A DNA stretch of 64,000 nt from Thermoguttaceae bacterium (GCA_028695965.1 JAQVHZ010000002.1:24001-88000); one strand, 5' to 3'. Shown: positions 19,601 to 34,580, counted from the first letter of the stretch. Program-made: numbers and translations. Notes: generated from the sequence alone by a model not told the origin.

Positions 19601-20252
19601 CCGCCAGACCGTAATTTTCGTCGAGAAAAGAGACGCCGAACAGATTGGCGTCGGTTGGCGTCTCGGCAAGGACCCAGTTTGCGCCCGCGTCCGCAGTCTT
19701 CCATACGACGCCGCGGTCGCCGACCGCCCAGCCTTGCGTTGGCGAGACGAAACAGACGTCGTTTAAGCGCGCGTCGTTTTTCTGTTCGGGGAAATTACGA
19801 TAGGAGGGCAGGGCAGGCGCGAAATTTGTTTCGCTGTACGTTTGGGGGATGTTGTCGGCGTCGCCTGATAATTCAGCGGCGTCGTCGGTCAGCGCGCTGG
19901 AAAAATCCAGCATTCCCCCTTCGGAGACGGGCGTGCGAACGCCGCGCTGAACAGGCGGCTCGTCATGCCCTTGCGTTTCTCCCTGAGGAACCGTCTGTTC
20001 TGAACTCGACTCTTCCGGCAACAGGGGGATTTGCTCTTCTTCGCGGTCCTTTCGAGAAACGTCGAACAGCGGGGGCAGCTCCTCTTGCTGCGCTTCGCCG
20101 TCGGCGTCGGGGTCCTGCTTTTTTTTCAGCGCGTCTTCTTTAATCTTTCCGGAGAACAGCCGCCAGCCTTGCGCGTTGGCGACGCTCGGTTCTGTCGAAA
20201 CGAACGGCGTCAGGACAAGCAGAAGTAAGACGAGTACGATCGATTTGCGCAT
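16620..20252 (-). CDS. large secreted Asp-box (BNR/Ycf48-like) beta-propeller protein with CBM9/DOMON-like C-terminus
   Basis: 1210 aa. Sec signal MRKSIVLVLLLLVLTPFVSTEPSVANA. At least six Asp-boxes (TADAGANW, TIDGGLTW, STDTGVEW, SSDFGDNW, SDDGGNVW, TNDGGRTW). C-terminal 'YLYLGVTC...YDRVELLFDLDGDYATAYKFVF...WTIEAAIPL' resembles carbohydrate-binding family 9. Confidence 0.8.
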   Translation of the reverse strand: MRKSIVLVLLLLVLTPFVSTEPSVANAQGWRLFSGKIKEDALKKKQDPDADGEAQQEELPPLFDVSRKDREEEQIPLLPEESSSEQTVPQGETQGHDEPPVQRGVRTPVSEGGMLDFSSALTDDAAELSGDADNIPQTYSETNFAPALPSYRNFPEQKNDARLNDVCFVSPTQGWAVGDRGVVWKTADAGANWVLAETPTDANLFGVSFLDENYGLAVGGRVNPTSHAGQGVVLRTIDGGLTWGEVPTAAFPILRDVKIIDEEYAWIAGDSSDLYPSGLFFSTDTGVEWIRVDGNKRGGWSSALYDPIEQLGVGVTTEGDVQGVDGAQAEQKPLSLGTRRARDVVYDGTTQRAWVVGDQGLTLVSSDFGDNWSQTPGGFPNESQNYFDLSGVVALDGFVGVVGTPGSLFFYSDDGGNVWNAAPTGVNTPLRKAAFIDRNNGWAVGDLGVIVATNDGGRTWKLQRSGGTRVAMLGIFGRAEDVPIEALVQLAGDGGFLTEIALVAREADKEGLAAEIPFVERFNEALVETGASGMTQASLFVLNPAVQRDSIEQILARFDAENDGDGLMRFRERLVRLLRIWRPSLLLTADSLLDDGAGNAVQIPDSLNINTPEGARALVGALAVNSANLDQRPHDPFQELLLRELPGAVRNAADPTVFPEHLTVCNLEPWSVKKARALCRGKTQGNLSIDSNYFCVSLGRTIAEIAANARAILSDSKQTRDTTNFQTLFSAVPTKYADKIFFDGLDLPYGCDARRARQSALANSADALASRAGDRRQKLGVVDALTRKSSNKSTSGSILLAQLRENIQGVDPDFAVEYLETVGRRFAEQGALAAAEEAYSLVALELPDHPQSVEAFTWLVQYYSGTEPKRRAQLQGEVTLNENWNDRLLNAQRLGDTIRDFAPDAYMAPEIRFPLAAAQLKSGDLEGAMNFYMIRSQASEDDVWGARAAAEYWLRAPVSDQRSTEKQFCPLSKFTCGRIFEKPYLDGAFEPSVWDSAQKVDLSTPFQEAPPLREPTLAERSAKMWRQKNKAFSKQIGTNVMFAHDSEYLYLGVTCQKTPGVNYSDQETAPKSDLADALNEASGTDANSEKPSRERDADQTFYDRVELLFDLDGDYATAYKFVFDCRGWLSDSNWNEPKWNPAIFVAKSETSSMWTIEAAIPLAELTDRPPAQGEVWRVAMRRIVPGVGIECWNVENSDSGENAFGLMEFE

Positions 20253-20359
20253 TGCGGCGCTTCTCCGGCGCTTGAATGTTAAAGTAACGTTACCGACTTC
20301 CTGCGGACCTGAAAACGCCTCGCGCGCGCATGGGTTACGGTCCGTAAAGAGCCGTCTGG

Positions 20360-20388
20360 ATGATAGTGAATTTGCGAGAAGACGTCAA
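20360..20388 (-). promoter_or_regulatory. sigma70-like promoter candidate for the 1210-aa gene
   Basis: Minus strand reads TTGACG, 17-nt spacer, TATCAT. It sits immediately downstream of the terminator of the preceding gene, ~100 nt before the ATG at 20252. Confidence 0.5.
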
Positions 20389-20427
20389 GAAAAGAAAAAA
20401 CGGACAATCCCTTTCAGGATTGTCCGT
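20389..20427 (-). terminator. rho-independent terminator after the lipoprotein gene
   Basis: Minus strand reads ACGGACAATCC-tgaaag-GGATTGTCCGT followed by TTTTTTCTTTTC. Perfect 11-bp stem. Confidence 0.65.
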
Positions 20428-20528
20428 TCAATTCGGTCGTTCATGCGAAAACGCTTTTGAGACGTCGCGCTGCGGTTCGGTTGCTGCCGCCGCTCGAGCG
20501 ACTGCAGGAACCGGCGTTGATTATGACG

Positions 20529-21086
20529 TTATTGAGCCATGCTCATATCAGCGTCAACGGCGTGCAGGTGATCTTTGTCGATGTAGACGACTTCTTGCGC
20601 GTCTTTCTTTTCGATAGAATAGGGTATCGGCCAGCCGACGCGAACGTTTTGTTCATAGTAAATAGTACACTTCCAGTGGACGTGGTGAACTTGGACAGCG
20701 CCGACCATGGGGAAGTATCTGGGCGGGTCGACGTAGTCGGCAACGAGTTCTTTGACGATCTTGACGTCGTTGCGATAACGAGTTTCCAAGAAGGGCACGC
20801 CGCCGTCGTTCGGCCTGGCTTTTTCGAGGAGACGAATGACCTCGTCGTCAGAGGGCGGGTCAATACCTTCCGGCACGCCGTCGACAATGGGAGGGAGAAT
20901 CGGAACTTGCGAGTAACGATCTTGCTCAAATGCCATATCTTCGTAGGCGCCCTGGAAGTACGGACTGACCGGAACCGGAACGCTGAAAATCCCGAGGTTG
21001 AATCCGCCGAAGCCGAAGCAACCGCTCGTAATAGCCGCGGCCAGCAGGGTGAGGCAAGCGGCGATTCTGAAATTCATTTTTTTCAT
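20529..21086 (-). CDS. putative lipoprotein, function unknown
   Basis: Preferred start is MKKMNFRIAACLTLLAAAITSGC (lipobox-like ITSGC) at 21086, with AAGGAAG upstream. The opposite-strand ORF 20457-21092 looks like a shadow ORF. Confidence 0.7.
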   Translation of the reverse strand: MKKMNFRIAACLTLLAAAITSGCFGFGGFNLGIFSVPVPVSPYFQGAYEDMAFEQDRYSQVPILPPIVDGVPEGIDPPSDDEVIRLLEKARPNDGGVPFLETRYRNDVKIVKELVADYVDPPRYFPMVGAVQVHHVHWKCTIYYEQNVRVGWPIPYSIEKKDAQEVVYIDKDHLHAVDADMSMAQ

Positions 21087-22558
21087 TTCTAACTTCCTTG
21101 ACAAATGATTTTCAAGAATGAACAACTTGGGGGCGGCGCCGAGGGCGCTTTTATTCGCGGCGCGCGTTCGAAAGGATCCGAAGCCGCATTGGCGAATACC
21201 GTCCTGGTTTTAGTTCCTGAACCCGCTTGTTCTCGTTAAGCGCGACGCGTTTTGGGGCGTCCTTCGCACGAAACCGACCGAACTTTTTACGAATATCACG
21301 GGGTTTTCAGGAGCGACGCAGAATAAATTCTTCCCGCCAATCCTTGTTTATATAGTCTCGACTTGTCGTTTGTCGGGACCGTCGTGGGGTATATATCGAA
21401 CGTCGACGCAACGAAACTTGCGCCTTTTTCGAAATAAAACCAATATAAACGACAAAAAGCCTGAGCGCGTCTGCCGACTTACAGTAAGCCGGGCTGCGAA
21501 ACGCTTGGCAAGAGCCGTGTAAAAGCGGCTTTTCAGCCTCTCCTAAGGCTCTCTTATCGTATTATCGGAACGCTTTTATGTTAGAGTTTACCCTTTTTTG
21601 GTATTTTTCTTTTTTTGCAGTCGACGTCGTTTAAGGCGTTGGAAGCTCGTTGAAGACCTATGGAAGACCTATGGATGAACCTGCGACCCATATTAAGCCG
21701 AGCGGCAGATCGCGCAGGAGCGTTTAGAATCGAGCGTTTAATATAGTGGCGACGGACGCCCGTAACAGGTATCGATAGAAATTAAACTCGTTCCTTATTT
21801 TCATCTGCAGAGGCATGAGGACGCAAAGATTGGCGCGCCGCGTATATATTAATTGACGTCAAGCAAGGGAGTCGGATAACGGTTCGTTGTGGATGCGAAG
21901 AATTGAGAAGGGGGAAAAAAGAAAAAAGAAACGATTAGCGGCGATTTTAGTTTCGAAATACCAAATAAAACGACTTTGAGCAGAGCGCCGGTAGTTTGTG
22001 CAGGACGCCTGAAGATAAGGAACAAAATCGAGGAAATAGTTGCAAGAAAAACCTGGACTGTGGACGATAAAGGGTTCAGGAACGACGGGTGAGCCGGGTT
22101 AAGCCGCCCCGAACGTCGGACGTCTGGGGTCGCATGAGCGTTTTCAGCCGTATGACGCAAGTTGGAAAGATTTCGAAACAGTCCTGTGGAATCGCCTAGT
22201 TCGTTTTTAGATTCTTTCGTTATTAGGAAAATGCTTAAAAAACAGTAGTTTTCGGTTGTAACGGCGGGATTGATTGTAACGTAAAACTTTTCATAGGAAG
22301 TTGTCGTTTTCGGGTAAAATAGCCTTGAAAGCATACGTTTCCGGAATTATACTTGATATCAAGGTCAGGCTTATACGGCGTTTTCCCAAATGCCTCTGCG
22401 GCTTGCGGAGGTGGATAAGATGCGTCAGATAAGCAAAATAAAAAAAATATAAAAAATGGCTAAATCTTAATTGGCTGTTAGCCGATTAGAAAAGAATAGG
22501 AACTATTAGGCTTTCCCAGCCTTAATTTAACAACCCGAAATTTAGGAGATTTTTGCAG

Positions 22559-23158
22559 ATGAAGACTCGTATCCTTCTTTCTGTTGCCGTCGTACTTGCT
22601 GCCGCTACGAGCGCTTTTGCTCAGGATTGCGCTCCTTGCGCTCCTGCCGCTTGCGCGCCGGCCGCCGTTACCTGTGAAGCCGCTCCGGTCACTTGCGCCC
22701 CTGCGGTTTGCGTTCCTTGCATCAATCCTTGCGGCGCCCTCAAAAACGCCGCCGCCAAAGGCTTCTGCGCGATCCAAAATGCGAAGTGCAACCTCCGCGC
22801 TCGTCTTGCCGCTTGCAAGCCGTGCGTAGCCCCTTGCGCTCCCGCCGCTTGCGCTCCTTGCGCTCCTTGCGCTCCTGCCGCTTGCGCTCCTTGCGCTCCG
22901 GCTGAATGCGCTCCGGCTCCGGCTCCTTGCGCTCCCGCTGCTTGTGCTCCGGCCCCGTGCGCCCCGACGGTTGATTGCGCTCCGGCTGCTTGCGATCCGG
23001 TTTGCGCGCCCGCGTTCAAGGCTTCCTGCTGCTTCAAGCCCTTCCAAGGTCTGAAAGCCCGCTTCGCGCGTCCTTGCTTCGCCGCTTGCGCTCCTTGCGC
23101 TCCGGCCGCTGACTGCGCTCCGGCTCCGTGCGCTCCGGCCGCCCCGGCTTGCAACTGA
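22559..23158 (+). CDS. secreted Cys-Ala-Pro (CAP) repeat protein
   Basis: ATG at 22559 lies 10 nt after AGGAG (22544-22548). Sec signal MKTRILLSVAVVLAAATSAFA/QD. The mature ~177 aa are dominated by C, A and P (33 Cys by my count) with CAPCAP / CAPAACAP units. A strong terminator follows. Confidence 0.75.
   Translation: MKTRILLSVAVVLAAATSAFAQDCAPCAPAACAPAAVTCEAAPVTCAPAVCVPCINPCGALKNAAAKGFCAIQNAKCNLRARLAACKPCVAPCAPAACAPCAPCAPAACAPCAPAECAPAPAPCAPAACAPAPCAPTVDCAPAACDPVCAPAFKASCCFKPFQGLKARFARPCFAACAPCAPAADCAPAPCAPAAPACN
22832..22966 (+). repeat. degenerate 9-nt (TGC-GCT-CCN) periodic tract inside the CAP gene
   Basis: Run of tgcgctcct / tgcgctccg / gcttgcgct units encoding PCAPAACAPCAPCAPAACAPCAPAECAPAPAPCAPAACAPAPCAP. 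Boundaries approximate. Confidence 0.7.
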
Positions 23159-23221
23159 GATTGACAATCAACGCCAGAGCAACCGCCAGTTTTACTGAGC
23201 GTCTTGTTCTCTTGACTGAGT

Positions 23222-23260
23222 AAAAGCCGTGAAGCATTTTATACGCTTCACGGCTTTTTC
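23222..23260. terminator. bidirectional rho-independent terminator between the CAP gene and kdsA
   Basis: AAAA-AGCCGTGAAGC-attttatac-GCTTCACGGCT-TTTTT. An 11-bp perfect stem flanked by an A-run and a T-run, between convergent genes. Confidence 0.7.
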
Positions 23261-23318
23261 TATTGTTTTTCGGGGTCTGCCCGCTTGTGTCGCCTTCCGG
23301 TTGGTCTCGGCTTTATCT

Positions 23319-24161
23319 CTATGGAGCCTCGACGGCGCGCCGAATTCTTAGTGTGGTTTTCAACAGCTCCGCGACCTGATTGATCGGAATCATATTAGGA
23401 CCGTCGCTTGGCGATTGTTCCGGATCGAAGTGCGTTTCTAGGAAGAGCGCGTCGATCCCTACAGCCGCCGCCGCGCGCGCAAGAGGCGCCACAAATTCTC
23501 TTTTACCTCCGGAAACGCCGTCCCCCGCGCTTGGCTGCTGGACGCTGTGCGTCGCGTCAAAGACGACGGGCGTTCCGATATTCCTCATGACGACCAGGGA
23601 TCGGAAATCGTTGACTAAATTTCCATACCCGAAAAAAGTTCCTCGTTCTCCGAGCAGGACGTTAGGAGTTCCGAACGCGATGAGTTTTTCTACGACTCTT
23701 GCCATATCTTGCGGGGCCATGAACTGCCCTTTTTTCACATGGACGGGCTTTCCGGTCTTCGCAGCGGCGGCGAGCAAGTCGGTCTGGCGCGCTAGAAACG
23801 CGGGAATTTGGAGCAGATCGACAATTTCTGCGACACGTTCTGCCTGAATCGTCTCGTGAATATCCGTGGTGACGGGCAGTCCCGACTTTTCTCGAATTTC
23901 CGCGAGCAGTTCCAGCCCGGCGTCTAGGCCCGGTCCGCGCCAGGACGACGCGCTTGTTCGATTCGCTTTGTCGAACGAACCTTTGAAAACAAGTTGAACG
24001 CGATAGTCTTCTCGAGCGAGTTCGGAGACAATTTCTTTCAGTTGAAGCGCAATATCTAGAGACGTTTCCGGTTGGAGAACGCAAGGCCCCGCGATGAGCA
24101 GCAGGTCTTTTCCAGCTCCGCATTGATACGGACCTATCGTAACGGGATTGTTCGGACGCAT
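23319..24161 (-). CDS. kdsA: 3-deoxy-8-phosphooctulonate (KDO8P) synthase
   Basis: 280 aa. Motifs '[11 protein letters not shown]', '[12 protein letters not shown]', '[13 protein letters not shown]', '[11 protein letters not shown]' and '[10 protein letters not shown]'. AAGGAG upstream. Confidence 0.93.
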
Positions 24162-24220
24162 TGTCTTCTCCTTGTTTTTACCTTTATTCGCCTAGTCGAC
24201 AGCGCTTTTGATTACCTGTC

Positions 24221-24249
24221 ATCATAGTAAAAATGACGCGGCGGTTCAA
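24221..24249 (-). promoter_or_regulatory. sigma70-like promoter candidate for kdsA
   Basis: Minus strand reads TTGAAC, 17-nt spacer, TATGAT, ~55 nt upstream of the kdsA ATG. It lies outside (left of) the island's left direct repeat. Confidence 0.5.
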
Positions 24250-24325
24250 GAGCTTTTCTAGTCCTAGAAAGGCGCGATTATTGAGGAGAAACGATAGAAC
24301 AGCAAGTTGAAATTGTTAGTCCGAA

Positions 24326-24363
24326 GTTTGTCAACGCTTGTTTTTTGCAGGCGCGTTTGGTAT
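24326..24363. repeat. left copy of a 38-bp direct repeat flanking the AT-rich island
   Basis: gtttgTcaacgcttgttttttgcaggcgcgtttggtat. Identical at 37/38 positions to 31238-31275 (T versus C at position 6). Confidence 0.9.
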
Positions 24364-24488
24364 AGACCAATTATGCTTAACGACAGAAAAAGCAGGGGAC
24401 GTTTAGTTGCTCATTGGTAGTCGTCGCGTCGAGTAAGACAGCGTAAAACGCTTATTGTTGCAATTTTCGTGTTGCTGGTTTTTTGGGA

Positions 24489-25280
24489 TCAACCGGTCAA
24501 GCTGGCTTTCCAGGCGTCAAGTTCTTTTTTCTTTCCGAGCGAGATTAGCCATGCTTCAAACCGCGCGTCCAGGGAGTCGTTATAATCAATTAGGTTGTGA
24601 CAGAATCCTTCAAATTTTTCATAGGAAGAGTCGAGCAGAGTTTTCATATAATTAGCGAGTTCCGAAACGTCCTTAATCTGTTTGTTGCCTACCATGAAAA
24701 GACGCTGACCAGAAAGAAGATACGCCATCGCGCGATAGTTTACAAGCGTTTCTCGGTCGCTCCGGCTATCTGCCCCATGGGCAGTTTCAAGCGCTGAACA
24801 CACAGAAGTAAGTTCTGTGTTCTTGATCTCCGTTTTGGAAAGATAGCTTGTAAGCAACTTGTTGTTCAAAATGCCGTCCCAGTACGGATAGTTCGATTCA
24901 TCGTTTTTCTGCAGTCGTTTTAACATATCGTAGCCAAGGTCTGTAAGGGAATGATAAGACTGTCCCTTCCAGTGGAACCCGTTAAGCTCCGGATAAATCT
25001 CATAAAGAAGATTCCAGTAGACAACGTCGTCATTGCTGTTAGACGCCGCCTCTATTTCCGCTTCCTTACATAAATTGGCAATATCTGCGTCGAAGTCCTT
25101 AAAGAACCTATACGTCAAACTTTGATAAAGTTGTTTTTTGCCTTCATCCCAATTTTTAGCAAGAGCCGTAATTAGGGAGGGAATATCTTGATATTGACGC
25201 CCCAGGAACGTATAGGCGGAATTGAATACTGCAGCGTTGCGATTATTTGCCGTTTGTTTATCCATCGTTATATTTCCCAT
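24489..25280 (-). CDS. hypothetical protein, partner of the helicase-nuclease (no recognisable motif)
   Basis: ORF 24489-25316. In-frame ATGs at 25316 (32-nt overlap with the helicase), 25280 (4 nt after the helicase TAA) and 25265. I list 25280. No TM segment or signal peptide. Apparent three-fold internal repeat. Same low-GC codon usage as the helicase. Confidence 0.7.
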   Translation of the reverse strand: MGNITMDKQTANNRNAAVFNSAYTFLGRQYQDIPSLITALAKNWDEGKKQLYQSLTYRFFKDFDADIANLCKEAEIEAASNSNDDVVYWNLLYEIYPELNGFHWKGQSYHSLTDLGYDMLKRLQKNDESNYPYWDGILNNKLLTSYLSKTEIKNTELTSVCSALETAHGADSRSDRETLVNYRAMAYLLSGQRLFMVGNKQIKDVSELANYMKTLLDSSYEKFEGFCHNLIDYNDSLDARFEAWLISLGKKKELDAWKASLTG

Positions 25281-25284
25281 GCGC

Positions 25285-28200
25285 TTATTTATTGTTGACA
25301 ATTTGCACTTTATCATTAATGATCTTGATTTTTTTGGTTTTAATTAAGAAGTCCATAGCATCGTCCATTTTTGTCTTAATTTTCGGTCCCCTTCGTTCAA
25401 ATCCGAAAGCTCGAGTACATTCGGCTGATAAATTGTCCGTTGTGATTCCAAAAGAATGCTCAACTATTCTTAGCATTGCAGCTGCGATTTCTTCCCTATG
25501 AATGTATTCAATTGGTCGAGGTATGTCGTATGGTCTAGGAATACGAGCGACAGCAGGCTTTTCCGGCGATAGTCTGACGAATTGTTCGTCGTCAATTTTG
25601 ACTTTCCCTTTTAATTTTAGCGTGATGGCCTGTTTAATATAATTTTTTACTCTTTGTTTCGCTTTGACGCCGGTGATTGACGGACGTACTCGCTCGTATA
25701 GCAGATCCGTGTGTATGGGCTGTTCGGCCGAAACAACGTATAGGATGAGTTGACTGACTCGTTCAACTTCGTTTATTGAATTGGAAGAGGGCGCTTGCCG
25801 CCAATCTGTTTCAACGTAATAGGTAAAATCGTATGGATTGGTGGCGGATTCTAGTTGAGATTGCACAGACTCCGTTGCAATTTGCTCAACAGGTATGGCG
25901 GCAGTTTCTTCATTGCTATATTTTACATTACGTTTGATTCTGCCGTCTTTGCCGACAACAGAACGAAGATAGTTAAGGAGCGCTTGCCTTTCTGTTTCAG
26001 GTTTGCACGCCCACTCGGTAGACCAGACTCGATATAGATTCCAGCCCATGTTTTGAAGTATTGTCGATCTCAGATTGTCCCTGTCTCGCGCGGTCTTTGC
26101 TTGAAAATAGGCTGGGCCGTCGCATTCAATACCAGCAATATATTCGCCGTCTACTTTGGGATTGACCACTGCAATATCGATTTTGTAATCGGAACATCCA
26201 ACTTCCGTATGAACTTTGTATCCGTTCTTTTCTAAGAAAGCAACGATTATTTTGCAGAAATCGTCTGTAGTATCGAACGTTTTTTCCTTGTCAGTTGGTC
26301 TGAGCGCGCTCGCGCCTTGTTGTGCAAATTCGATGTACGATCTTAGCATTTGGACGCCTTGGGAGTTTGTTCTGTTGAGATCGACGTCAGAAGGAAGGAT
26401 AGAACCGATAAGCTTCACGTTGCACTTTGCTCTCGTAATGGCAACATTCAATCGTCGTTCTCCGCCTTCATGGCTGAGAGGACCGAAACGCATATACATT
26501 TTTCCTTGTTGATCTTTTGCGTAACCAATACTGAAAAAGACGACGTCTCTTTCGTCTCCTTGTACGTTTTCAAGGTTCTTAACAAAGAAAGGTTCTTCTT
26601 TTGCTTCGTCGAAAAACCATTCATATTGCGGATTTTGCTTTCTGAAATCAAGGATAACATTTTCAATAACGGCCTGTTGTTTTTCACTGAACGCAATAAT
26701 GCCCAACGAACGGTCCGGTCGTTCTTGAATGTGCTCTAAAAGAAGCTCAAGGCACTTTTGCGCTTCTTTTATGTTGCAGTTTTTGCCTCCGCCTTCGTAA
26801 TAGCCGTCTTCCACATAGACGTACTCGACGCCCATATTAGGAACGTTGGCAAGGCTGTTAGGGAACGTGATAAGCTTGTTGCCGTACATTTCTCTGTTAG
26901 AGAAGGCAATCAAATTCTCATGCTTGCTTCGATAGTGCCATAATAAAGATCTGTTAGGTAAAGCCGCCGCTGCTTCTTCCAGAATCGAGTCGGAAACGAC
27001 GTCGTAGTATAGGTCTTCGTCGTCTTCGTCAGAACCGTCGTACTCGCTGTCGAAGTTGTTAGCGGACGCCCTAAAGAAGTTAGTGGGAGGAAGTTGCTTG
27101 CTGTCGCCCGCTATCACGACTTGGGAACCTCGGAAGATAGCGCCAATTGCGTCTTCTGGGAAAATTTGCGACGCCTCGTCAAAGATGACCAAGTCAAAAT
27201 GGTATGCTTCTGCCTCCAAGAAATGCGAGACCGACAGAGGCGACATCATCAAACAGGGTTTTAACGTCAGCAACAGATTAGGGATGAGTCGAAAGAGCCT
27301 TCTTAGCGGCATGACGTTCCGCTTTTTGTTCAATTCCTTTTTGAGGATAGCCACTTCGTCCGTTGCTCTCAGCAATTGATGGGCGGAAGGAAGTTTATCG
27401 ATTAGCATCTCGCGGATGCGCATTTGCGCGGTTGCCAACTGAAAGTTATCTAACTCGATGAACCTCTTAATGCGTTCGTCATGAGTGTTTCTTCCAAACC
27501 GACGCACAGAAGCAAATTCGTCGCGCGCTGCGCCAAGACACAGCGTATAGTAACGCTTCAAGAAGATTTTTTCGATCTCATTGCAACGTCCTGTCGCTTC
27601 TATTTTTTTGATAAAATCTTGAAGATTATCTGCGCAGCATTCTTTTTTTGCTTCCTGATAAGCGATCCAATCGTCCAGCATTGGCAACGCTTCTATGTAG
27701 TTTTTCACCTCTTGGGAAATGGCTGCGAGCCTAGCGTCCTGGTTGAACTGAGACTGAGTGAGCTGAGAACTAATCCATTGAAGGGTAGTACCCGCCTGGT
27801 GATAAAGTTTTGAGATTTCGTCGGCAATTTTCTTGATTTCTTGCTTTCGTGAGACGTCTACATTAATAAGCGCATCTAAGAATCCATGCGTTCTATTTTC
27901 TAGAATATGGCTAGTCTGGCGGAGTAATGAGAGAATGTTGTTCCAGTCTGTTTGACGGTTTTCAAAGAACTCTCCAAAGCGCTGCGCGTTTGTTTCTGCG
28001 TCGTCGTCAAGCTCCTTAGAAAGTTGTCTGTGTGCGTTCAGGTATGAAATAGTTTTATAGACAGAACGAATATCCGTCTTATTGTCCATCAGGTATGGTT
28101 TAAGTTCGTAAGCTTGTTCCTTCACGAGGTTCAGCCGAGTCAAGTAGACCTCGACATTTGCTAAGGCTTCCTGAGCATCAAACTCGGCGTCAACAGACAA

Positions 28201-30819
28201 TGGCGCTTCATTGTCGTTAATCTGATTAACAGCTGTTCGAGCTGTTTCTAGAAGCGTTTCCAAAGACGAGACAACCTCATTATGGTTCTTTGCCAACAAG
28301 TCGAGGAGCGTCTCTGATAAAATTTCCTCGCATTGGAACTTCAGTTTCTGCGCCGTTTGGTTTGCGGAAAGCGCCTCGTCCCATTGCGAATCGATTCCAT
28401 TATAATAGGAGTCGAGCGAGTCTGACAGTGCAGCTCTATTTTCCTCAAACCAAGCAACTTGATCGTGATAATCCTTTAAAGTGAATAAGAGGTCAGCCGC
28501 AATTTCATCGCCATAGTTGCTGACGATCTTTCTTGAGAGACCTTTGATTGTTTTTACGTCCTTTCTGTACTGTGACTTGAAGATTTTAAAAAAGCTTGTG
28601 TGATCGGTTTTGTATCTCAGAAGCATGGGCGCGTAATCCAACTGTAACGCGTCAGGCTCCCATTTTTCAAGGATTCGATTTTTTATTTTATGCAACTGAG
28701 TCGCTTTACTACGGGCTTCTTTAAGAAGCTCTTCATGTTTGTTTAAATTAATGGCAAACCAATTCTTAGGGATAATGTCATTTTTTTTAATCAGTTTTAG
28801 AAGCTGGTCTATTTTTTGCAGTTCGACAATATTGACAGACACATCAACGCCGAGCAACTTGTTGATGGAATTAACAGCTGATATTGCTTGAACTAACGCT
28901 TCTCGAAGACTTGAAAAAATCTTGTATAAAGGACTTTGGTATGCGATAAAGAAATCGGGCGAATCCTTCTTGATATACGGCATAGCAAGGAATTCATTTG
29001 CTACGGACAGAATCTTTTCTTTCCAACCATTATAATCAAACGTATAAATTCCAGAGTTAAAGACCTCGGCAATTTTATTTTCAAAAGCGGTCAGTTTTTG
29101 GTACCTTGTCCTGAGCGCCTGAACTTCCTCAGGAAGCAGAGCAAGGTTCTTTTCATCGAGCCAATGATTAGGTATCTTTGGCAGTTCGTAAACAAGGTCT
29201 ATGAACTGTGTCAAGTTGGGAATGTCCCGGTATTTCAACGTACTCGGCAGTTCAGGACATTCCTTAATTTCCTCTAAGTGAGTTAGGATGGCGTCGATCA
29301 TATTTTGCGAGGAACTTAGCTTCTGCTGTATCGTTTCAGCATATTGATATTCAGTGGAATAAGAGTGTAGCCCTTGCCAGGGGTGGTTGTGAAAGTTGCA
29401 GTTTATTCTCTGAGCGGCATATTCATAGTTCTTTATCCTGTCGAGGTAAGTTCGTAATTGAGATTGCGTTACATTTAACGGCTTTTCCAAATCAAAGACA
29501 ATGAAAGGCGCGCCGTTGACTTCTTTCAATTTGCTGTATAAGTCATAACAACTGAGATTGATTTTAGGAATTACCTTATGCAACTCCTCTACGTACTGAT
29601 TTAGCTGCTCGCGAATGGTCTGCAGCTCTTCGAGATTGCTAAGCGCGTGATCTTTCACACTAATTTGTTTGAGGTCGAGATTTGCAGTAATGAGCTCAAT
29701 GACTTCTCTCTTCTTTGCCTTATGGCTGTGAAGAGGCAAGCAGAAATCAGCCAAATGAGCCTCCTGCAACCTGCGGTAAACAACTTGCAGCGCCGCCATT
29801 TTTTCCGATACAAACAGAATCTTTTTCTTATCTGCTAAGGCTTCGGCGATAATGTTGGTGATCGTTTGGCTTTTACCAGTACCCGGCGGTCCCTGCATTA
29901 CAAAACTAATGTTGTTTTTCGAGTAAAGAATCGCGTCCTGCTGGCTGGAGTCAGCGTTCATTACTTGATAACAATCGGTCGGCTTTATTGCGTCTAGATC
30001 GAATGTTCGCAGTTTGTCGGGCACTTTGTTTACCTTGTTGACGTCGCCAGACAATGCTCTAATTACCGGATTATTCTTGATGCGATTCTCGTTTTGCTTT
30101 AAATCGTTGTACATAGCGATTTTAAGAAAAGAGAGCAGACCGAGGCTAACTTCTTTTAGAATACGCCAACCTTGTTGTTTTGCAATTTCCTCGAGGGTTT
30201 CAAAATAATTGCTCAGGGAGTCTTTGTCTGAGTCATAATTAGGCAGGTCAATACCGAATTCAGTTTTAAGATAATGTTGAAGCGTGGGATTGACGACAAT
30301 GTCGTCTTCATATTTTGAAATAGCATATGGCGAGTTTAATGTCTCAAGGGTCAGTGTTGTCGGCACAAGAACTAGCGGCGCCTTGCGCAACTGAGCCGTC
30401 GAACCTTTTCCGTCTTGCCACTCAATAAAACCAAAAGAAATGTATAGGGCATTAACGCCTTGTTCTTCAAGGGAAAGGCGAGCTTTCTGACGGAGGTTTT
30501 TTAAGGTTTTTTGTCGTTCTAGAATGCTTCCTTCGGCCTTGATATCGCCGATGGCGACGGGTAGCGGAACCGACAGATTTTCGAGCAGAGAAAGAATAGA
30601 GAATACGCGCACGTCCGTTTCTCTATCGACAACTCGTTGGAACGTAAGAGTTTCTTCTTCTATTGCTAGTCTTCGGTACAGCTCTTCGAAAGACGGCTCT
30701 ACTAATTTCAAAGTAGACCTTTTCGTCTCTCGGTAGTTGATCATTCTGTTGCGTTTGCCGAGATCAAGAAGCTGATGTTCCCAGTGTTCAAATTTTTTGT
30801 TTAACAATGCAGAAGACAT
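25285..30819 (-). CDS. DUF4011-like / Upf1-DNA2-like SF1 helicase (AAA_11 + AAA_12 type) fused to a Vsr/DUF559-like endonuclease fold and a DUF3320-like tail
   Basis: 1844 aa. N-terminal 'WEHQLLDLGKRNRMINYRE'. Walker A MQGPPGTGKSQT (aa 308-319, nt 29869-29892 for GPPGTGKS). Walker B VIFDEASQ (DEAS at nt 27169-27180). Also VIAGDSKQLPPT, 'GDERDVVFFS' and 'RRLNVAITRAK'. Nuclease fold 'GYKVHTEVGCSDYKIDIAV...IAGIECDG...GWNLYRVWSTEW' (about nt 26005-26262). Family names are from memory of the signatures, not from a search. Confidence 0.9.
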   Translation of the reverse strand: MSSALLNKKFEHWEHQLLDLGKRNRMINYRETKRSTLKLVEPSFEELYRRLAIEEETLTFQRVVDRETDVRVFSILSLLENLSVPLPVAIGDIKAEGSILERQKTLKNLRQKARLSLEEQGVNALYISFGFIEWQDGKGSTAQLRKAPLVLVPTTLTLETLNSPYAISKYEDDIVVNPTLQHYLKTEFGIDLPNYDSDKDSLSNYFETLEEIAKQQGWRILKEVSLGLLSFLKIAMYNDLKQNENRIKNNPVIRALSGDVNKVNKVPDKLRTFDLDAIKPTDCYQVMNADSSQQDAILYSKNNISFVMQGPPGTGKSQTITNIIAEALADKKKILFVSEKMAALQVVYRRLQEAHLADFCLPLHSHKAKKREVIELITANLDLKQISVKDHALSNLEELQTIREQLNQYVEELHKVIPKINLSCYDLYSKLKEVNGAPFIVFDLEKPLNVTQSQLRTYLDRIKNYEYAAQRINCNFHNHPWQGLHSYSTEYQYAETIQQKLSSSQNMIDAILTHLEEIKECPELPSTLKYRDIPNLTQFIDLVYELPKIPNHWLDEKNLALLPEEVQALRTRYQKLTAFENKIAEVFNSGIYTFDYNGWKEKILSVANEFLAMPYIKKDSPDFFIAYQSPLYKIFSSLREALVQAISAVNSINKLLGVDVSVNIVELQKIDQLLKLIKKNDIIPKNWFAINLNKHEELLKEARSKATQLHKIKNRILEKWEPDALQLDYAPMLLRYKTDHTSFFKIFKSQYRKDVKTIKGLSRKIVSNYGDEIAADLLFTLKDYHDQVAWFEENRAALSDSLDSYYNGIDSQWDEALSANQTAQKLKFQCEEILSETLLDLLAKNHNEVVSSLETLLETARTAVNQINDNEAPLSVDAEFDAQEALANVEVYLTRLNLVKEQAYELKPYLMDNKTDIRSVYKTISYLNAHRQLSKELDDDAETNAQRFGEFFENRQTDWNNILSLLRQTSHILENRTHGFLDALINVDVSRKQEIKKIADEISKLYHQAGTTLQWISSQLTQSQFNQDARLAAISQEVKNYIEALPMLDDWIAYQEAKKECCADNLQDFIKKIEATGRCNEIEKIFLKRYYTLCLGAARDEFASVRRFGRNTHDERIKRFIELDNFQLATAQMRIREMLIDKLPSAHQLLRATDEVAILKKELNKKRNVMPLRRLFRLIPNLLLTLKPCLMMSPLSVSHFLEAEAYHFDLVIFDEASQIFPEDAIGAIFRGSQVVIAGDSKQLPPTNFFRASANNFDSEYDGSDEDDEDLYYDVVSDSILEEAAAALPNRSLLWHYRSKHENLIAFSNREMYGNKLITFPNSLANVPNMGVEYVYVEDGYYEGGGKNCNIKEAQKCLELLLEHIQERPDRSLGIIAFSEKQQAVIENVILDFRKQNPQYEWFFDEAKEEPFFVKNLENVQGDERDVVFFSIGYAKDQQGKMYMRFGPLSHEGGERRLNVAITRAKCNVKLIGSILPSDVDLNRTNSQGVQMLRSYIEFAQQGASALRPTDKEKTFDTTDDFCKIIVAFLEKNGYKVHTEVGCSDYKIDIAVVNPKVDGEYIAGIECDGPAYFQAKTARDRDNLRSTILQNMGWNLYRVWSTEWACKPETERQALLNYLRSVVGKDGRIKRNVKYSNEETAAIPVEQIATESVQSQLESATNPYDFTYYVETDWRQAPSSNSINEVERVSQLILYVVSAEQPIHTDLLYERVRPSITGVKAKQRVKNYIKQAITLKLKGKVKIDDEQFVRLSPEKPAVARIPRPYDIPRPIEYIHREEIAAAMLRIVEHSFGITTDNLSAECTRAFGFERRGPKIKTKMDDAMDFLIKTKKIKIINDKVQIVNNK

Positions 30820-31237
30820 AATTCCCTTGCTCTATTTCAGCGTTTTATCGACAGGCTCTTTTTTGCCCTGACGCTATTTTTGCCCTTTGTCGTTTGCATA
30901 CTTTGGCGGGTGGAAAATCGCTTTGTTGCGGTTCCGTTGACTCATCATATGGCTTGTCTAGTTTGCAACCTATTTTAGAACTCGCTTTTTATGTTTTTGT
31001 TTGCAATAAACGTAACATTTTCGTATGCGTGAACCATACTTATTTCAGAATTTCGGTATGATTGCAACAGTCCAGTATGTATTATAACGCATTGAGGTTG
31101 GAAACATAGGGGTTGTTCTAAAAAAAATCTGGCTTAATCTTTGAAAAATCTTACCAGAAAAAGAAAGTGGGAGGCGAGGGGATTTGACTTTTGCTCAAAG
31201 CGCAAGGATTATCAACAAATTTCGAGATTACTTATAT

Positions 31238-31275
31238 GTTTGCCAACGCTTGTTTTTTGCAGGCGCGTTTGGTAT
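31238..31275. repeat. right copy of the 38-bp direct repeat
   Basis: gtttgCcaacgcttgttttttgcaggcgcgtttggtat. See 24326-24363. Confidence 0.9.
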
Positions 31276-31278
31276 GAT
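31250..31278 (+). promoter_or_regulatory. sigma70-like promoter candidate for the 31371 gene, mostly inside the direct repeat
   Basis: TTGTTT (31250-31255), 17-nt spacer, TATGAT (31273-31278). The -35 element and spacer lie within the repeat. The left copy has TTGTTT-17-TATAGA. Confidence 0.4.
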
Positions 31279-31370
31279 ATAAACGCCATCGAGTCTGCGC
31301 TTGGCGTTTTGTTGCGGCGCGCGGTATTTTGGACGGTTGGGTTAATCCGCAGAGAATTGACGGGTTAGAA

Positions 31371-32801
31371 ATGGAGGATCAAGTGCGACGTTACTCTTTG
31401 TTTTTCACACTGGCGGTTGTGTTTTTTGCCGCAGCTTCTTCGGCGTCTGTTGCGGAAGAATTTCCGAGCCTTACTTTTGAGAAAGGCGGCAAGACGTATC
31501 GTATCGAGGTGGGGGAAGAGCGCGTGATTGTGCGCGGGATCCGGCCGGAAGAACAGCTTTGGGGGCCGTATCAGTTCCCGAGACCTTACGACCTTGGAGA
31601 TCGATTTGTCGTCGGCGTGCATATAACAGAAGACAATATCGCCACTTATGGCGCGAAGAACCGCTGGTTCGAGAGCCGCGACCAAGGACTGACGTGGCAG
31701 GAGGTCGACGAGAGCATAAGGCCGGAGTGCGGGGTTCCGCTTGCTAACGGGGACAAATTGTTCTTTCCGACAGAAAACGCCGTCGACGTTTCCGACTACT
31801 TGATTCGTTCCTTCGAACGTCGGCTTCCGAATTACGACTACACGAAGAAAGCGGAGCCGGGGACCTTTCCTATTCCCGACGGCGTAACGTGTTGGATGGG
31901 CGGGACGACGATCTATGCGTATAACGCGGATCGTCTTCCGGCTCCTTTTGACAAGAAAGTCTGGCGCGCGAAATTACTTCGCGCGGGCGAAAAAGAGGCG
32001 GTCGACGTCGAGGTTCCGGTCGACTGGCCCTGCCTCACTCGAGTCGTCCATATGTACGGTTCTCAACGCGTCTTGAAATCGATTTTTCCGCGCGGCAACT
32101 TAAAGCGCGGGGCTGACGGCGCGCTCTGGATCAGCGCGTTTTCCGGAGAAGGGCATATCGACCCGTCTAACGGTCAGTACTCCCCTTATTACTCCGCCGA
32201 GCTCTTCCGTTCTGCGGACGAAGGGAAGTCGTTTCAACGGGTCGCGCATATGGAATACCCCGCAGACGGACAGTATTATCCCTATGCGAGCGGGGGATTC
32301 AGCGACAGCGATTTTGAATTCATGCCCGACGGTTCGATCGTCTGGTTCTTCCGGTCGAATTGGTACGGCTCGACTGGCGAAGAATGGTCGCCGATGTACT
32401 TTACGCGCTCGACCGATATGGGCAAAACATGGGCCAAGCCGACCCGGTTCGCGCCCGTGGGCACGCTGCCGCGGCTCTGCAATTTGAAGGGCGGTTTTAC
32501 GCTCGTTTGTTACGCGCGACCGGGGATGTTCGTTCAGGTCTGCACGGACGATTCTGGGATTGAATGGAGCGAGCCGCTGGAACTCATGACCCCGGGAGAT
32601 CGGAGCCATTTGGCGAATAAAGTCGAAGAGTCGCCGAGATTTCACGATTGGGACGGCGCGTGCAATAATCCGGAATTGCTCCCGCTCGACGATAATTCCG
32701 CGCTCTTTTTCTACAGCGATTTCTATTATCCCGACGAAGAAGGCGTCAAGCGCAAGACGATCCTTTGCAGAACCTTGACGATTACGGAAGTTGAGAAATA
32801 G
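31371..32801 (+). CDS. secreted Asp-box (BNR) sialidase-superfamily beta-propeller protein
   Basis: Start ATG at 31371 (MEDQVRRYSLFFTLAVVFFAAASSASVAEE, a signal peptide); the ORF-track start at 31329 is a TTG. Asp-boxes SRDQGLTW, SADEGKSF and STDMGKTW. Confidence 0.8.
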   Translation: MEDQVRRYSLFFTLAVVFFAAASSASVAEEFPSLTFEKGGKTYRIEVGEERVIVRGIRPEEQLWGPYQFPRPYDLGDRFVVGVHITEDNIATYGAKNRWFESRDQGLTWQEVDESIRPECGVPLANGDKLFFPTENAVDVSDYLIRSFERRLPNYDYTKKAEPGTFPIPDGVTCWMGGTTIYAYNADRLPAPFDKKVWRAKLLRAGEKEAVDVEVPVDWPCLTRVVHMYGSQRVLKSIFPRGNLKRGADGALWISAFSGEGHIDPSNGQYSPYYSAELFRSADEGKSFQRVAHMEYPADGQYYPYASGGFSDSDFEFMPDGSIVWFFRSNWYGSTGEEWSPMYFTRSTDMGKTWAKPTRFAPVGTLPRLCNLKGGFTLVCYARPGMFVQVCTDDSGIEWSEPLELMTPGDRSHLANKVEESPRFHDWDGACNNPELLPLDDNSALFFYSDFYYPDEEGVKRKTILCRTLTITEVEK

Positions 32802-32870
32802 GACGTCCGGTTTTGAGGGAACGCGAAAGCTGCTTGGAAACTTGGACAATTATTATTGGAGAAGTCAACG

Positions 32871-34580
32871 ATGAAACGAACGGCGTTTTTTTTCGCGGCA
32901 GTCCTTTGGAGCGCCGCTTCTTTGCTTTTGGCGTCGGAGCCCTTGAACCTAAGCTTTGAGTTTTCAGGCGTTTCCCCCGAACAAGGCGAAATTGTCGAAC
33001 AGATTGTCGAACAGCGTCTTTCCGAACGCAGCGCCGGCGGCGAACTTCACGCGTCCTACGCGGTCGACGCCAGCTTTGACGCCGAGGAGTATTCCGTCGA
33101 AACGAACGGTTCGACGGCGACCCTTCGGGCGGGCTCCTTTCCCGGCTTGATTTTTGCAACGGGCAAGCTGCTTCGCTCGATCAATTACGCGCCCGATTCT
33201 TTTACGATCCCGGAGTTTTCGTTCCGCGAAAAACCGTCTGCTTCTTTTCGCTGCTGTTACTTTGCGCGTCATTTCCATAATTGGTACCATATGGCGACCG
33301 ACGAAGAACTTGAGCGTTACGTTGAAGATCTTGCGTTGTGGGGTTTCAACACAATTGCAACGATCCAGATTCCGCTGGTTAATTTGAACCTTGACCCGGA
33401 AACAGAAGAATGGCGTCATGCAGTTAAGGGCGTGAAGACGATTAGAGCCGCCTCTAAGAGGTTGGGACTTTCTTTTGTCGCGTTAGACTGCGTCAATCAG
33501 GCTCCGCGGGATATTCCAGAAGAGCTTATAGCGACCCCCAATATCGATCCCAAGCGCGGCAACAACGGCTGGAACGCCTGCCTTTCTAAGCCGGGCGGTC
33601 TCGAATATATGGACCGAGTAATTCGCGCGTCCTTCGGTTCTTTTGTGGGCGCGCAGGCGGATTACACGTGTTGGTGGCCTTTTGACGAAGGGGGCTGCGA
33701 ATGCGAGGGATGCGGACCTTGGGCGGTCAACGGCTTTTTGAAACACGTCGCCCGCTACTCGAAGCTCGTCAACGACGAATTTGCGCCGGATCAGAAATTC
33801 ATCGTGTCGACGTGGACTTACCACGAAGACGAATTTGAAGCGGTCTGGGAATGGGGCAAAGATCATCCGGAAGTGAAGTACGTCTTAGCGGACGCGCACG
33901 GCGATTTCCCGAAATATCCGCTTGAACGTCCGCTGCCGGAAGGATATGCGCTCGTCACTTTTCCGGAGATCAGCATGCAGGGCCGATTCCCTTGGGGCGG
34001 CTACGGCGCTACCCCTCAGCCTCGGCGCTTTACGGAACTTTGGGAACAAGTTCGCGGCCATGTCGACGGCTGTATGCTCTATTCCGAGGGACTGTTTGAA
34101 GATATTAACAAGATTATTGAATCGGGGTTCTATTTCCGAGACGAAAAAGCAGAAGATTCTCTGCGCGAGTATGCGCAGTACGAGCTGGCAGGCTGCGATC
34201 CGGAAGATTTTGTCAAGTTGTGCCGCAACTTAGAGGCGATTCTTATTTTACGCGAGCAGAACCCCGAATATGCCGCCGCCGCGCTTGACGCGATGAAGTT
34301 GGCGGTCAAGATCGACTCGGAAATTCTTCCGTCCCTTCGAAACGCATGGCGATGGCGTCAGTTCTACTGCCGCTGTCTGCTGGAGTACGAACGCAACGTT
34401 CGCGGCAACGAAAACACGCAGACGTATGTCGACGCGATCCTCGAATTGCAACATATGTATCATTCCGATCTCTTCCCGGAAGGCGTTGTCGACGAGATGC
34501 ACGGGTGTACGACTCCCGTTCTGCCGCAGGGCGAAATCGGAGTTTACCCGCAGCCGGAGGAGGAAATTCAAGAGCGTTAG
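32871..34580 (+). CDS. secreted glycoside-hydrolase-like protein (GH20/GH67/DUF4838-like N-domain plus TIM-barrel-like region), function uncertain
   Basis: ATG at 32871 lies 9 nt after GGAG (the ORF-track start at 32856 is a TTG). Signal peptide MKRTAFFFAAVLWSAASLLLASE. 'LRAGSFPGLIFATGKLLRSI' followed by 'FRCCYFARHFHNWY...DLALWGFNTI' resembles the N-domain/TIM junction of those families. The functional call is weak. Confidence 0.7.
   Translation: MKRTAFFFAAVLWSAASLLLASEPLNLSFEFSGVSPEQGEIVEQIVEQRLSERSAGGELHASYAVDASFDAEEYSVETNGSTATLRAGSFPGLIFATGKLLRSINYAPDSFTIPEFSFREKPSASFRCCYFARHFHNWYHMATDEELERYVEDLALWGFNTIATIQIPLVNLNLDPETEEWRHAVKGVKTIRAASKRLGLSFVALDCVNQAPRDIPEELIATPNIDPKRGNNGWNACLSKPGGLEYMDRVIRASFGSFVGAQADYTCWWPFDEGGCECEGCGPWAVNGFLKHVARYSKLVNDEFAPDQKFIVSTWTYHEDEFEAVWEWGKDHPEVKYVLADAHGDFPKYPLERPLPEGYALVTFPEISMQGRFPWGGYGATPQPRRFTELWEQVRGHVDGCMLYSEGLFEDINKIIESGFYFRDEKAEDSLREYAQYELAGCDPEDFVKLCRNLEAILILREQNPEYAAAALDAMKLAVKIDSEILPSLRNAWRWRQFYCRCLLEYERNVRGNENTQTYVDAILELQHMYHSDLFPEGVVDEMHGCTTPVLPQGEIGVYPQPEEEIQER

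Follow-up and report, generated by a model that had tools for sequence, protein, structure and literature searches.

Background

The single-protein system Hhe, reportedly described by Gao et al. in 2020, is said to join a DUF4011 helicase to a Vsr-like endonuclease and to act against phages in Escherichia coli. The E. coli protein gives protection from lambda, T3, T7, and PhiV-1, and does so only with its nuclease residue E1731, the E1731A mutant being inactive (bioRxiv 10.1101/2022.06.16.496414). Two further relatives, PDC-S37 and ProA, are represented by profiles in PADLOC and NCBIfam, and our literature search found no source paper for either. Here we examine a strain-variable islet in a 64,000-nucleotide (nt) stretch of DNA from a Thermoguttaceae bacterium (GCA_028695965.1 JAQVHZ010000002.1:24001-88000; hereafter the window, with positions counted from its first letter). 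Its minus strand carries a helicase-nuclease gene of 1844 amino acids (aa) (gene 1, 25285..30819) and, directly downstream, a small gene whose longest frame spans 24489..25316 (275 aa; gene 2). An original prediction, made by a model from the sequence alone, had proposed both open reading frames (ORFs), which exist as claimed, and had taken them for an uncharacterised two-gene defence module.

When gene 1 is compared with the known families, PDC-S37 is the top PADLOC match (1390.8 bits, E = 0), in three stretches of which the best covers positions 640-1545 of the 1550 in the profile, and Hhe follows with 585 bits. In NCBIfam, ProA (NF058533) reaches 1300.9 bits (E = 0), with the best stretch confined to aa 845-1809, and Hhe (NF042953) reaches 863.1 bits; the ProA cut-off of 1500 and the Hhe equivalog cut-off of 2000 are both missed, and gene 1 is therefore a relative of ProA and Hhe, not an equivalog. 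A relative of gene 1 from a larger operon (locus L005) also stays under the ProA cut-off, with a score of 1315. These profile matches bear out the predicted kinship of gene 1 to anti-phage helicase-nucleases and, at the same time, place it in a PDC-S37/ProA-like/Hhe-like group, so that the module, as regards gene 1, is not of an uncharacterised kind. We conclude that gene 1 is known in kind, and that the domain encoded by its partner and the operon to which both belong in relatives are undescribed; no paper describing either was found in the literature.

Gene 2 and its kinase homologues

No family in Pfam, NCBIfam, PADLOC, or PHROGs matched gene 2. Most of its homologues (52-63% identity) form the last ~245 residues, at the C-terminus, of a Ser/Thr kinase. 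An exhaustive profile search with this domain, hereafter Cdom, collected 332 representative clusters, the main form being a protein of 530-660 aa with Cdom at residues ~320-570. When the 560-aa kinases of two relatives (loci L084 and L085) were compared with the window by tblastn, only residues 317-560 aligned (63% identity), and residues 1-316 left no trace in it. Judged by this homology, gene 2 encodes the non-catalytic C-terminal domain (~240 aa) of a Ser/Thr kinase, and not the free-standing sensor or antitoxin that had been proposed for it. On the simplest reading, an in-frame deletion of ~300 codons (residues ~19-316) would have taken exactly the catalytic domain of the kinase.

The junction of the two genes was read correctly from the outset: the helicase stop codon (TAA) lies at 25285-25287 and the in-frame ATGs of gene 2 at 25316, 25280, and 25265, so that the two genes either overlap by 32 nt or are separated by 4 or 19 nt. 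The ATG at 25265 is the most likely start, with a predicted product of 258 aa (24489..25265, minus strand) beginning 19 nt past the helicase stop; 25280 and 25316 are the alternatives. This start is favoured because the first 16 residues that follow from it (MDKQTANNRNAAVFNS) align with the N-terminal leader of homologous kinases (MSNQTVINPNVNATVINS; p = 0.0005-0.002 against composition-preserving shuffles). In gene 2, the leader runs directly into the beginning of Cdom.

An AlphaFold2 model of Cdom (predicted local distance difference test, pLDDT, 84; predicted template modelling score, pTM, 0.76) consists of three repeats, each a beta-hairpin plus helices. Foldseek against PDB and BFVD returned a best E of about 1 for this fold, and a search of PDB sequences with the Cdom profile a best E of 0.3. 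The three internal repeats (window 24489-25265) open with similar motifs, YTFLGRQYQDIPSL, FHWKGQSYHSLTDL, and LFMVGNKQIKDVSEL.

Linkage of helicase and Cdom and the operon of relatives

A helicase gene lies directly upstream at 48 of the 54 Cdom loci where upstream DNA is visible. The six exceptions are two helicase-free loci (L135, L131), two relics (L136, L143), and two loci at which just ~600-750 nt of upstream DNA can be seen (L090, L112). When the helicase cores of 112 loci are joined in a neighbour-joining tree (without support values), all 39 Cdom-linked helicases fall into one clade that holds zero unlinked members. Conservation of the small gene directly downstream, which the original prediction had named as a check on itself, is thus found throughout the clade (39/39) and at most Cdom loci. 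In the wider helicase family, represented by 75 usable loci chosen by species, Cdom was the sole recurrent downstream partner (five loci), and at the remaining ones the helicase was solitary or had unrelated neighbours. At L136 (297-2717), a 220-aa Cdom fragment adjoins a serine recombinase gene and a truncated HisA/F gene.

In relatives the pair is usually part of an operon of 7-9 genes rather than the two-gene system originally proposed. An HTH_26 regulator is followed by the helicase-nuclease, a 560-aa protein consisting of kinase and Cdom, one or two variable small genes, and then a cassette encoding a 430-aa protein of unknown function, an FHA protein with a zinc ribbon, an NrdG-like radical-SAM activase, optionally an LRR_5 protein, a ClpB-D2-like AAA+ protein (626 aa), and a PP2C phosphatase. 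The stop codon of the helicase and the start codon of the kinase overlap or nearly abut. Such operons lie on contigs of Clostridia type with low guanine-cytosine (GC) content, at L084 (757-14987), L085 (9762-25255), L083 (the Aristaeella lactis plasmid NZ_CP069422.1, 13977-27453), and L094-L128. If the core of the cassette is taken to be the genes for the 430-aa protein, FHA, radical-SAM activase, AAA+, and PP2C, every one of the 31 relatives in which 6 kb or more can be seen downstream has four or all of these five. The kinase (P0003) has HKD, DFG, and APE motifs and looks active. Searched against PADLOC v2, the non-helicase genes of the operon gave only generic kinase and AAA+ matches, and against NCBIfam generic sub-threshold matches with no anti-phage name among them. 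None of the catalytic kinase domain, the HTH_26 regulator, and the cassette genes left a trace in tblastn searches of window positions 20000-33000.

The surroundings of these operons vary. On the A. lactis plasmid, a DUF6273 protein and a second kinase (952 aa) extend the operon (L083 27467-31839), and upstream of it there is an integrase together with a WYL-domain gene. Group II intron reverse-transcriptase/maturase genes are found just 5' of the HTH_26-helicase operon at L085 (5073-8430) and L086 (1273-4630).

Cdom genes without a kinase domain occur outside the window as well. L089 encodes a 423-aa Cdom protein after a helicase (41% identity to gene 1 for the helicase, 39% to gene 2 for Cdom), and L016 a 412-aa protein whose Cdom is ~21% identical to that of the window and 24% to that of the L084 kinase; at L145 (270 aa) and L146-148 (252 aa), the upstream ORF is the C-terminus of a helicase. 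All these lineages are far more divergent from the window than its kinase-bearing relatives are, from which it follows that the kinase-less state has more than one origin. The cassette is also absent at those kinase-less loci where downstream DNA is visible, namely the window, L016, L145, and, over a short distance, L146-147. Because the cassette vanishes together with the kinase, the kinase domain and cassette would form one removable module, and helicase and Cdom another. On this comparison of sequences, the helicase-Cdom pair looks like a conserved core, the Cdom gene being kinase-less in at least four lineages besides that of the window. Two more candidates for stand-alone Cdom proteins were left uncounted, P0002 as the product of a broken low-coverage assembly and P0010 as lying at a contig end.

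Architecture of the helicase-nuclease

The domains first proposed for gene 1 were all recovered by Pfam. DUF4011 (PF13195, 6.5e-33) occupies aa 16-184 at the N-terminus (30268..30774; this and the following features lie on the minus strand). AAA_11 (1.1e-16) and AAA_12 (1.8e-15) follow, the latter as the second RecA-like helicase domain (aa 1280-1473, 26401..26982). A PD-(D/E)xK-type nuclease domain of the REase_MTES_1575/Vsr-like kind (PF18741, 1.9e-30; DUF559 match weak, 0.0098) covers aa 1521-1617 (25969..26259), and the C-terminal tail holds a DUF3320 match that is barely above the cut-off (PF11784, 1.1e-5; aa 1686-1712, 25684..25764). The motifs quoted with these domains proved exact in every position. 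They are the opening stretch at aa 13-31 (WEHQLLDLGKRNRMINYRE), Walker A or helicase motif I, GPPGTGKS (aa 310-317, 29869..29892), unchanged in 16 homologues, motif II, VIFDEASQ (aa 1211-1218, 27166..27189), VIAGDSKQLPP (aa 1235-1245), and RRLNVAITRAK (aa 1455-1465), together with YKIDIAV (aa 1545-1551), GIECDG (aa 1563-1568), and GWNLYRVWSTEW (aa 1592-1603) in the nuclease part. K316, D1214/E1215, D1548, and D1567 are invariant across the 16 homologues, and E1565 is nearly so.

Gene 1 thus has Walker A, a DEAxQ motif II, the later motifs, and the two RecA-like domains of an Upf1-like helicase of superfamily 1B (SF1B), and IGHMBP2, Sen1, and Nam7, all Upf1-like, are its sole sequence relatives of solved structure. 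It differs from IGHMBP2, Sen1, and Upf1 by a ~700-aa all-alpha insertion between motifs I and II (aa ~400-1110, 27490..29622), which splits the first RecA-like domain, is modelled by AlphaFold2 as nearly all helix with pLDDT mostly 80-90, and has no match to a Pfam family. Structural matches of helicase residues 1-1200 (pTM 0.33) to SMC-type coiled coils were rejected as an artefact of helical content (TM <= 0.1). A conservation scan of the helicase for a docking segment specific to the clade gave a mild signal only, at aa 41-120.

The islet as a recent insertion

The two genes are the only ones on a 6874-nt insert of foreign DNA (24364..31237), which is recognised from empty-site contigs and from its GC content of 0.429 against 0.558 in the remaining window, in agreement with the AT-rich insertion first noted. 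Scanning the islet for further credible genes, tRNA, and Rfam RNA yielded nothing besides these two genes; a recombinase or integrase and terminal inverted repeats were likewise looked for on it and not found. It is bounded by a 38-nt direct repeat, either a duplicated target or an att-like core, with a left copy at 24326..24363 and a right copy at 31238..31275, both on the plus strand and 37/38 identical to each other; the chance expectation for two such copies is none.

The islet sits between kdsA (23319-24161) and a BNR-repeat gene, and sister strains are without it. In eight metagenome contigs (L149-L156), kdsA is 99% identical to that of the window and adjoins the BNR-repeat gene directly, as against a distance of 7 kb in the window. 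Their intergenic DNA aligns to window positions 24062-24363 and 31238-31474 with a 38-nt overlap, and the 38-nt sequence is present in a single copy. As the empty sites keep this single copy, the 6874 nt were inserted with a 38-bp target duplication. Three more metagenome contigs (L087, L088, L092) contain the same islet at an identity of ~99.6% or above. The islet is a horizontally acquired, recent, strain-variable insertion of ~6.9 kb, and the empty sites support the acquisition that had been proposed for it. The host is a planctomycete, as its kdsA is 89% identical to that of Thermoguttaceae metagenome-assembled genomes. The donor is a low-GC, Clostridia-like source, and the transfer crossed phyla; it is on low-GC contigs that the closest helicases (62-64% identity) are found. 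Phage origin was considered and rejected, with one weak helicase match and zero Cdom matches in 50,697 phage records.

Comparison of gene 1 between the near-identical strains reveals 11 non-synonymous and 11 synonymous changes, or a ratio of non-synonymous to synonymous substitution rates (dN/dS) of roughly 0.3, from which we take the helicase to be under purifying selection. The sole indel within the islet is a 3-nt insertion carried by L087, L088, and L092 at window 25281-25284, where a spacer separates the helicase stop from the ATG at 25280. Upstream of the helicase gene, the insert ends in a non-coding leader of 418 nt (30820..31237, minus strand), whose ORFs are all <=55 aa and which has no Rfam match; tblastn with the HTH_26 regulator of L085 as the query found no match in it. 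A second low-GC patch, at 21000-22500 (GC 0.44-0.48), comprises an ORF of 161 aa together with a long run of intergenic DNA. This patch is native to the host and lies outside the insertion, since island-free strains share its gene order.

Function of the islet and alternative explanations

On balance, we favour the explanation that the islet is a reduced helicase-nuclease system of the Hhe/ProA/PDC-S37 type, in which Cdom serves as a dedicated partner. We infer anti-phage function, contact between helicase and Cdom, and the direction of signalling from the anatomy, homology, synteny, and clade structure of the pair and from its origin by insertion. The helicase-nuclease would be the effector and, if Hhe and the Upf1-like SF1B enzymes are a guide, would load on invading or abnormal DNA, translocate with ATP, and cut through its PD-(D/E)xK domain. 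Cdom would be a dedicated helicase-binding partner, that is, a docking or regulatory domain, a role that suits it best because it has no catalytic motif and is encoded next to the helicase, whose stop codon its start codon often overlaps. Where the operon is complete, Cdom might bring the kinase to the helicase and so tie phospho-signalling to the state of the DNA motor, with the FHA protein reading the signal, PP2C resetting it, and the AAA+ and radical-SAM proteins executing it. In the islet, where the kinase and cassette are gone, Cdom could be at most a regulatory or stabilising subunit of a phosphorylation-independent, constitutive two-gene form. More tentatively, and with rather less confidence than in the reduced system as such, we suggest that Cdom is an undescribed helicase-docking domain, that an Hhe-like helicase-nuclease and Cdom form a core to which the kinase/FHA/PP2C/AAA+/radical-SAM cassette is usually added, and that the Clostridia operon is a phospho-regulated immune system of which the islet is a minimised working form.

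Several findings weigh against a working reduced system. The HTH_26 regulator and the whole cassette are missing from the islet, as they would be from a fragment. Cassettes without a DUF4011 helicase upstream exist at L135 (8056-16109) and L131 (1172-8964), and Cdom is therefore not strictly bound to the helicase; found helicase-free, and at L135 next to three large serine recombinases, the segment from kinase to PP2C is best seen as a separable mobile module. The Cdom fragment of L136 resembles debris left at a mobile element's edge. Gene 2 keeps only 79 of the 100 Cdom positions that are conserved at >=90% in the family, compared with 95-99% in kinase-fused relatives at comparable divergence, and its changes include radical ones (W->Q, Y->R, R->Y); between strains Cdom shows a single change, which is non-synonymous, and one is too few to gauge selection. 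These changes, like the missing regulator and cassette, fit relaxed constraint on a relic, or a functional shift after the loss of the kinase. On the side of gene 1, PDC-S37 is a candidate system only and the ProA and Hhe cut-offs are missed, and Pseudomonas aeruginosa has a DUF4011 gene in its non-variable core (PMC10250203), so that members of the family need not all be defence genes.

The alternative that draws most on these points, which we consider unlikely though deserving of attention, is that the helicase-nuclease acts alone like Hhe and that the 258-aa ORF is a dead leftover of the kinase that has yet to acquire stop codons. The altered fifth of the conserved positions (21%), the disappearance of kinase domain, cassette, and HTH_26 regulator, and the survival of a Cdom fragment as debris at L136 would all be expected of a relic, as would a wider family that is mostly solitary, with a recurrent partner in the Cdom clade only among the 75 loci, and nearest entries, Hhe and PDC-S37, that consist of a single gene. 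A relic is harder to reconcile with a deletion that is in frame and falls exactly at the domain borders with the start codon and leader retained, with an ORF that is intact over 774 nt at 42% GC in four independent assemblies (the window and the three further metagenome contigs), with a confident AlphaFold2 model (pLDDT 84), or with the recurrence, in four or more other deep lineages, of Cdom genes that have no kinase part and come straight after the helicase. It is the border-exact in-frame deletion, the intact ORF, and the recurring two-gene form that place a working partner, narrowly, ahead of a relic.

Two further explanations are improbable. Cdom could restrain a putatively self-toxic helicase-nuclease in the manner of a toxin-antitoxin pair, blocking it until infection removes or titrates Cdom. 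Tight operon coupling with the partner downstream, a partner without enzymatic motif, and a pair that outlasts the loss of all signalling genes would suit such an arrangement, and Hachiman provides a precedent for a restrained nuclease-helicase pair (PMC12278908); most family members, however, are partnerless, and the fusion of Cdom to an active-looking kinase in the full systems points to signalling rather than neutralisation. The least probable explanation, by our estimate, is a non-immune one, with the pair engaged in repair, recombination, or maintenance of mobile elements, or the islet being inert transferred debris. It would be consistent with the P. aeruginosa DUF4011 core gene, which flanks a defence hotspot in all isolates (PMC10250203), with relatives on plasmids or beside recombinases or group II introns, and with an islet that has no neighbouring defence genes within the window. 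Against it stand nearest named families that are anti-phage, purifying selection on the helicase, strain-variable presence and transfer across phyla, both typical of defence cargo, and homologues that are nearly absent from phage genomes (1 of 50,697 records).

The islet can be regarded as a natural deletion experiment, in which helicase and Cdom have together outlived a move between phyla and the disappearance of all signalling genes. It is, besides, a clean case of insertion without a recombinase, with a duplicated 38-bp target and empty sites to match. Of greater interest is the clade-wide operon of helicase, Cdom, and kinase, of which the window has a reduced copy: a whole clade of Hhe-like helicase-nucleases is never alone, each being tied to a novel kinase-tail domain, and its operon offers a testable handle on how helicase-nuclease effectors are regulated.

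Comparison with known systems

Gene 1 resembles Hhe in having the same order of DUF4011, superfamily 1 helicase, and Vsr-like nuclease in one polypeptide, and by analogy a nuclease-dependent mechanism may be expected of it. Unlike Hhe, which is solitary, and PDC-S37, which is a one-gene entry, the clade of gene 1 has an obligate Cdom or kinase gene downstream, and neither PADLOC nor NCBIfam, the sources of the PDC-S37 and ProA profiles, has any model for the partner. Nhi and Mokosh, which the original prediction had put forward as precedents, fared less well. No PADLOC model for Nhi matched gene 1 at E <= 0.1, and the likeness to Mokosh is generic to helicases, consisting of Upf1-like motifs and partial helicase matches to MkoA/MkoC (82-95 bits); gene 1 has neither the PLD nuclease nor the RNA-helicase accessory domain and is not Mokosh. 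Gene 2 matches no known antitoxin family, and the pair was accordingly not placed among the type II toxin-antitoxin systems.

The two-gene logic of a helicase with a non-helicase partner recalls Hachiman, whose HamAB is reported to pair a DNA-state-sensing helicase with a restrained nuclease partner (PMC12278908). The islet differs in having helicase and nuclease on one polypeptide and in a Cdom that has no nuclease and no known fold, and there is no sequence kinship. The Ser/Thr kinase of the relatives, accompanied by FHA and PP2C, is similar to what is found in TerY-P, MADS (MAD6), BREX PglW, PD-T4-6, and the KKP module of Pf prophages. Its matches to mad6 and PD-T4-6 are generic and limited to the catalytic domain, whereas Cdom, the 430-aa protein, FHA, the radical-SAM activase, and PP2C are unmatched in PADLOC, and the window itself is without kinase domain and cassette. 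Compared, finally, with the operon of the Clostridia relatives, the islet lacks that same kinase domain and cassette, and has in common with it a helicase of the Cdom-linked clade and an adjacent Cdom gene downstream.

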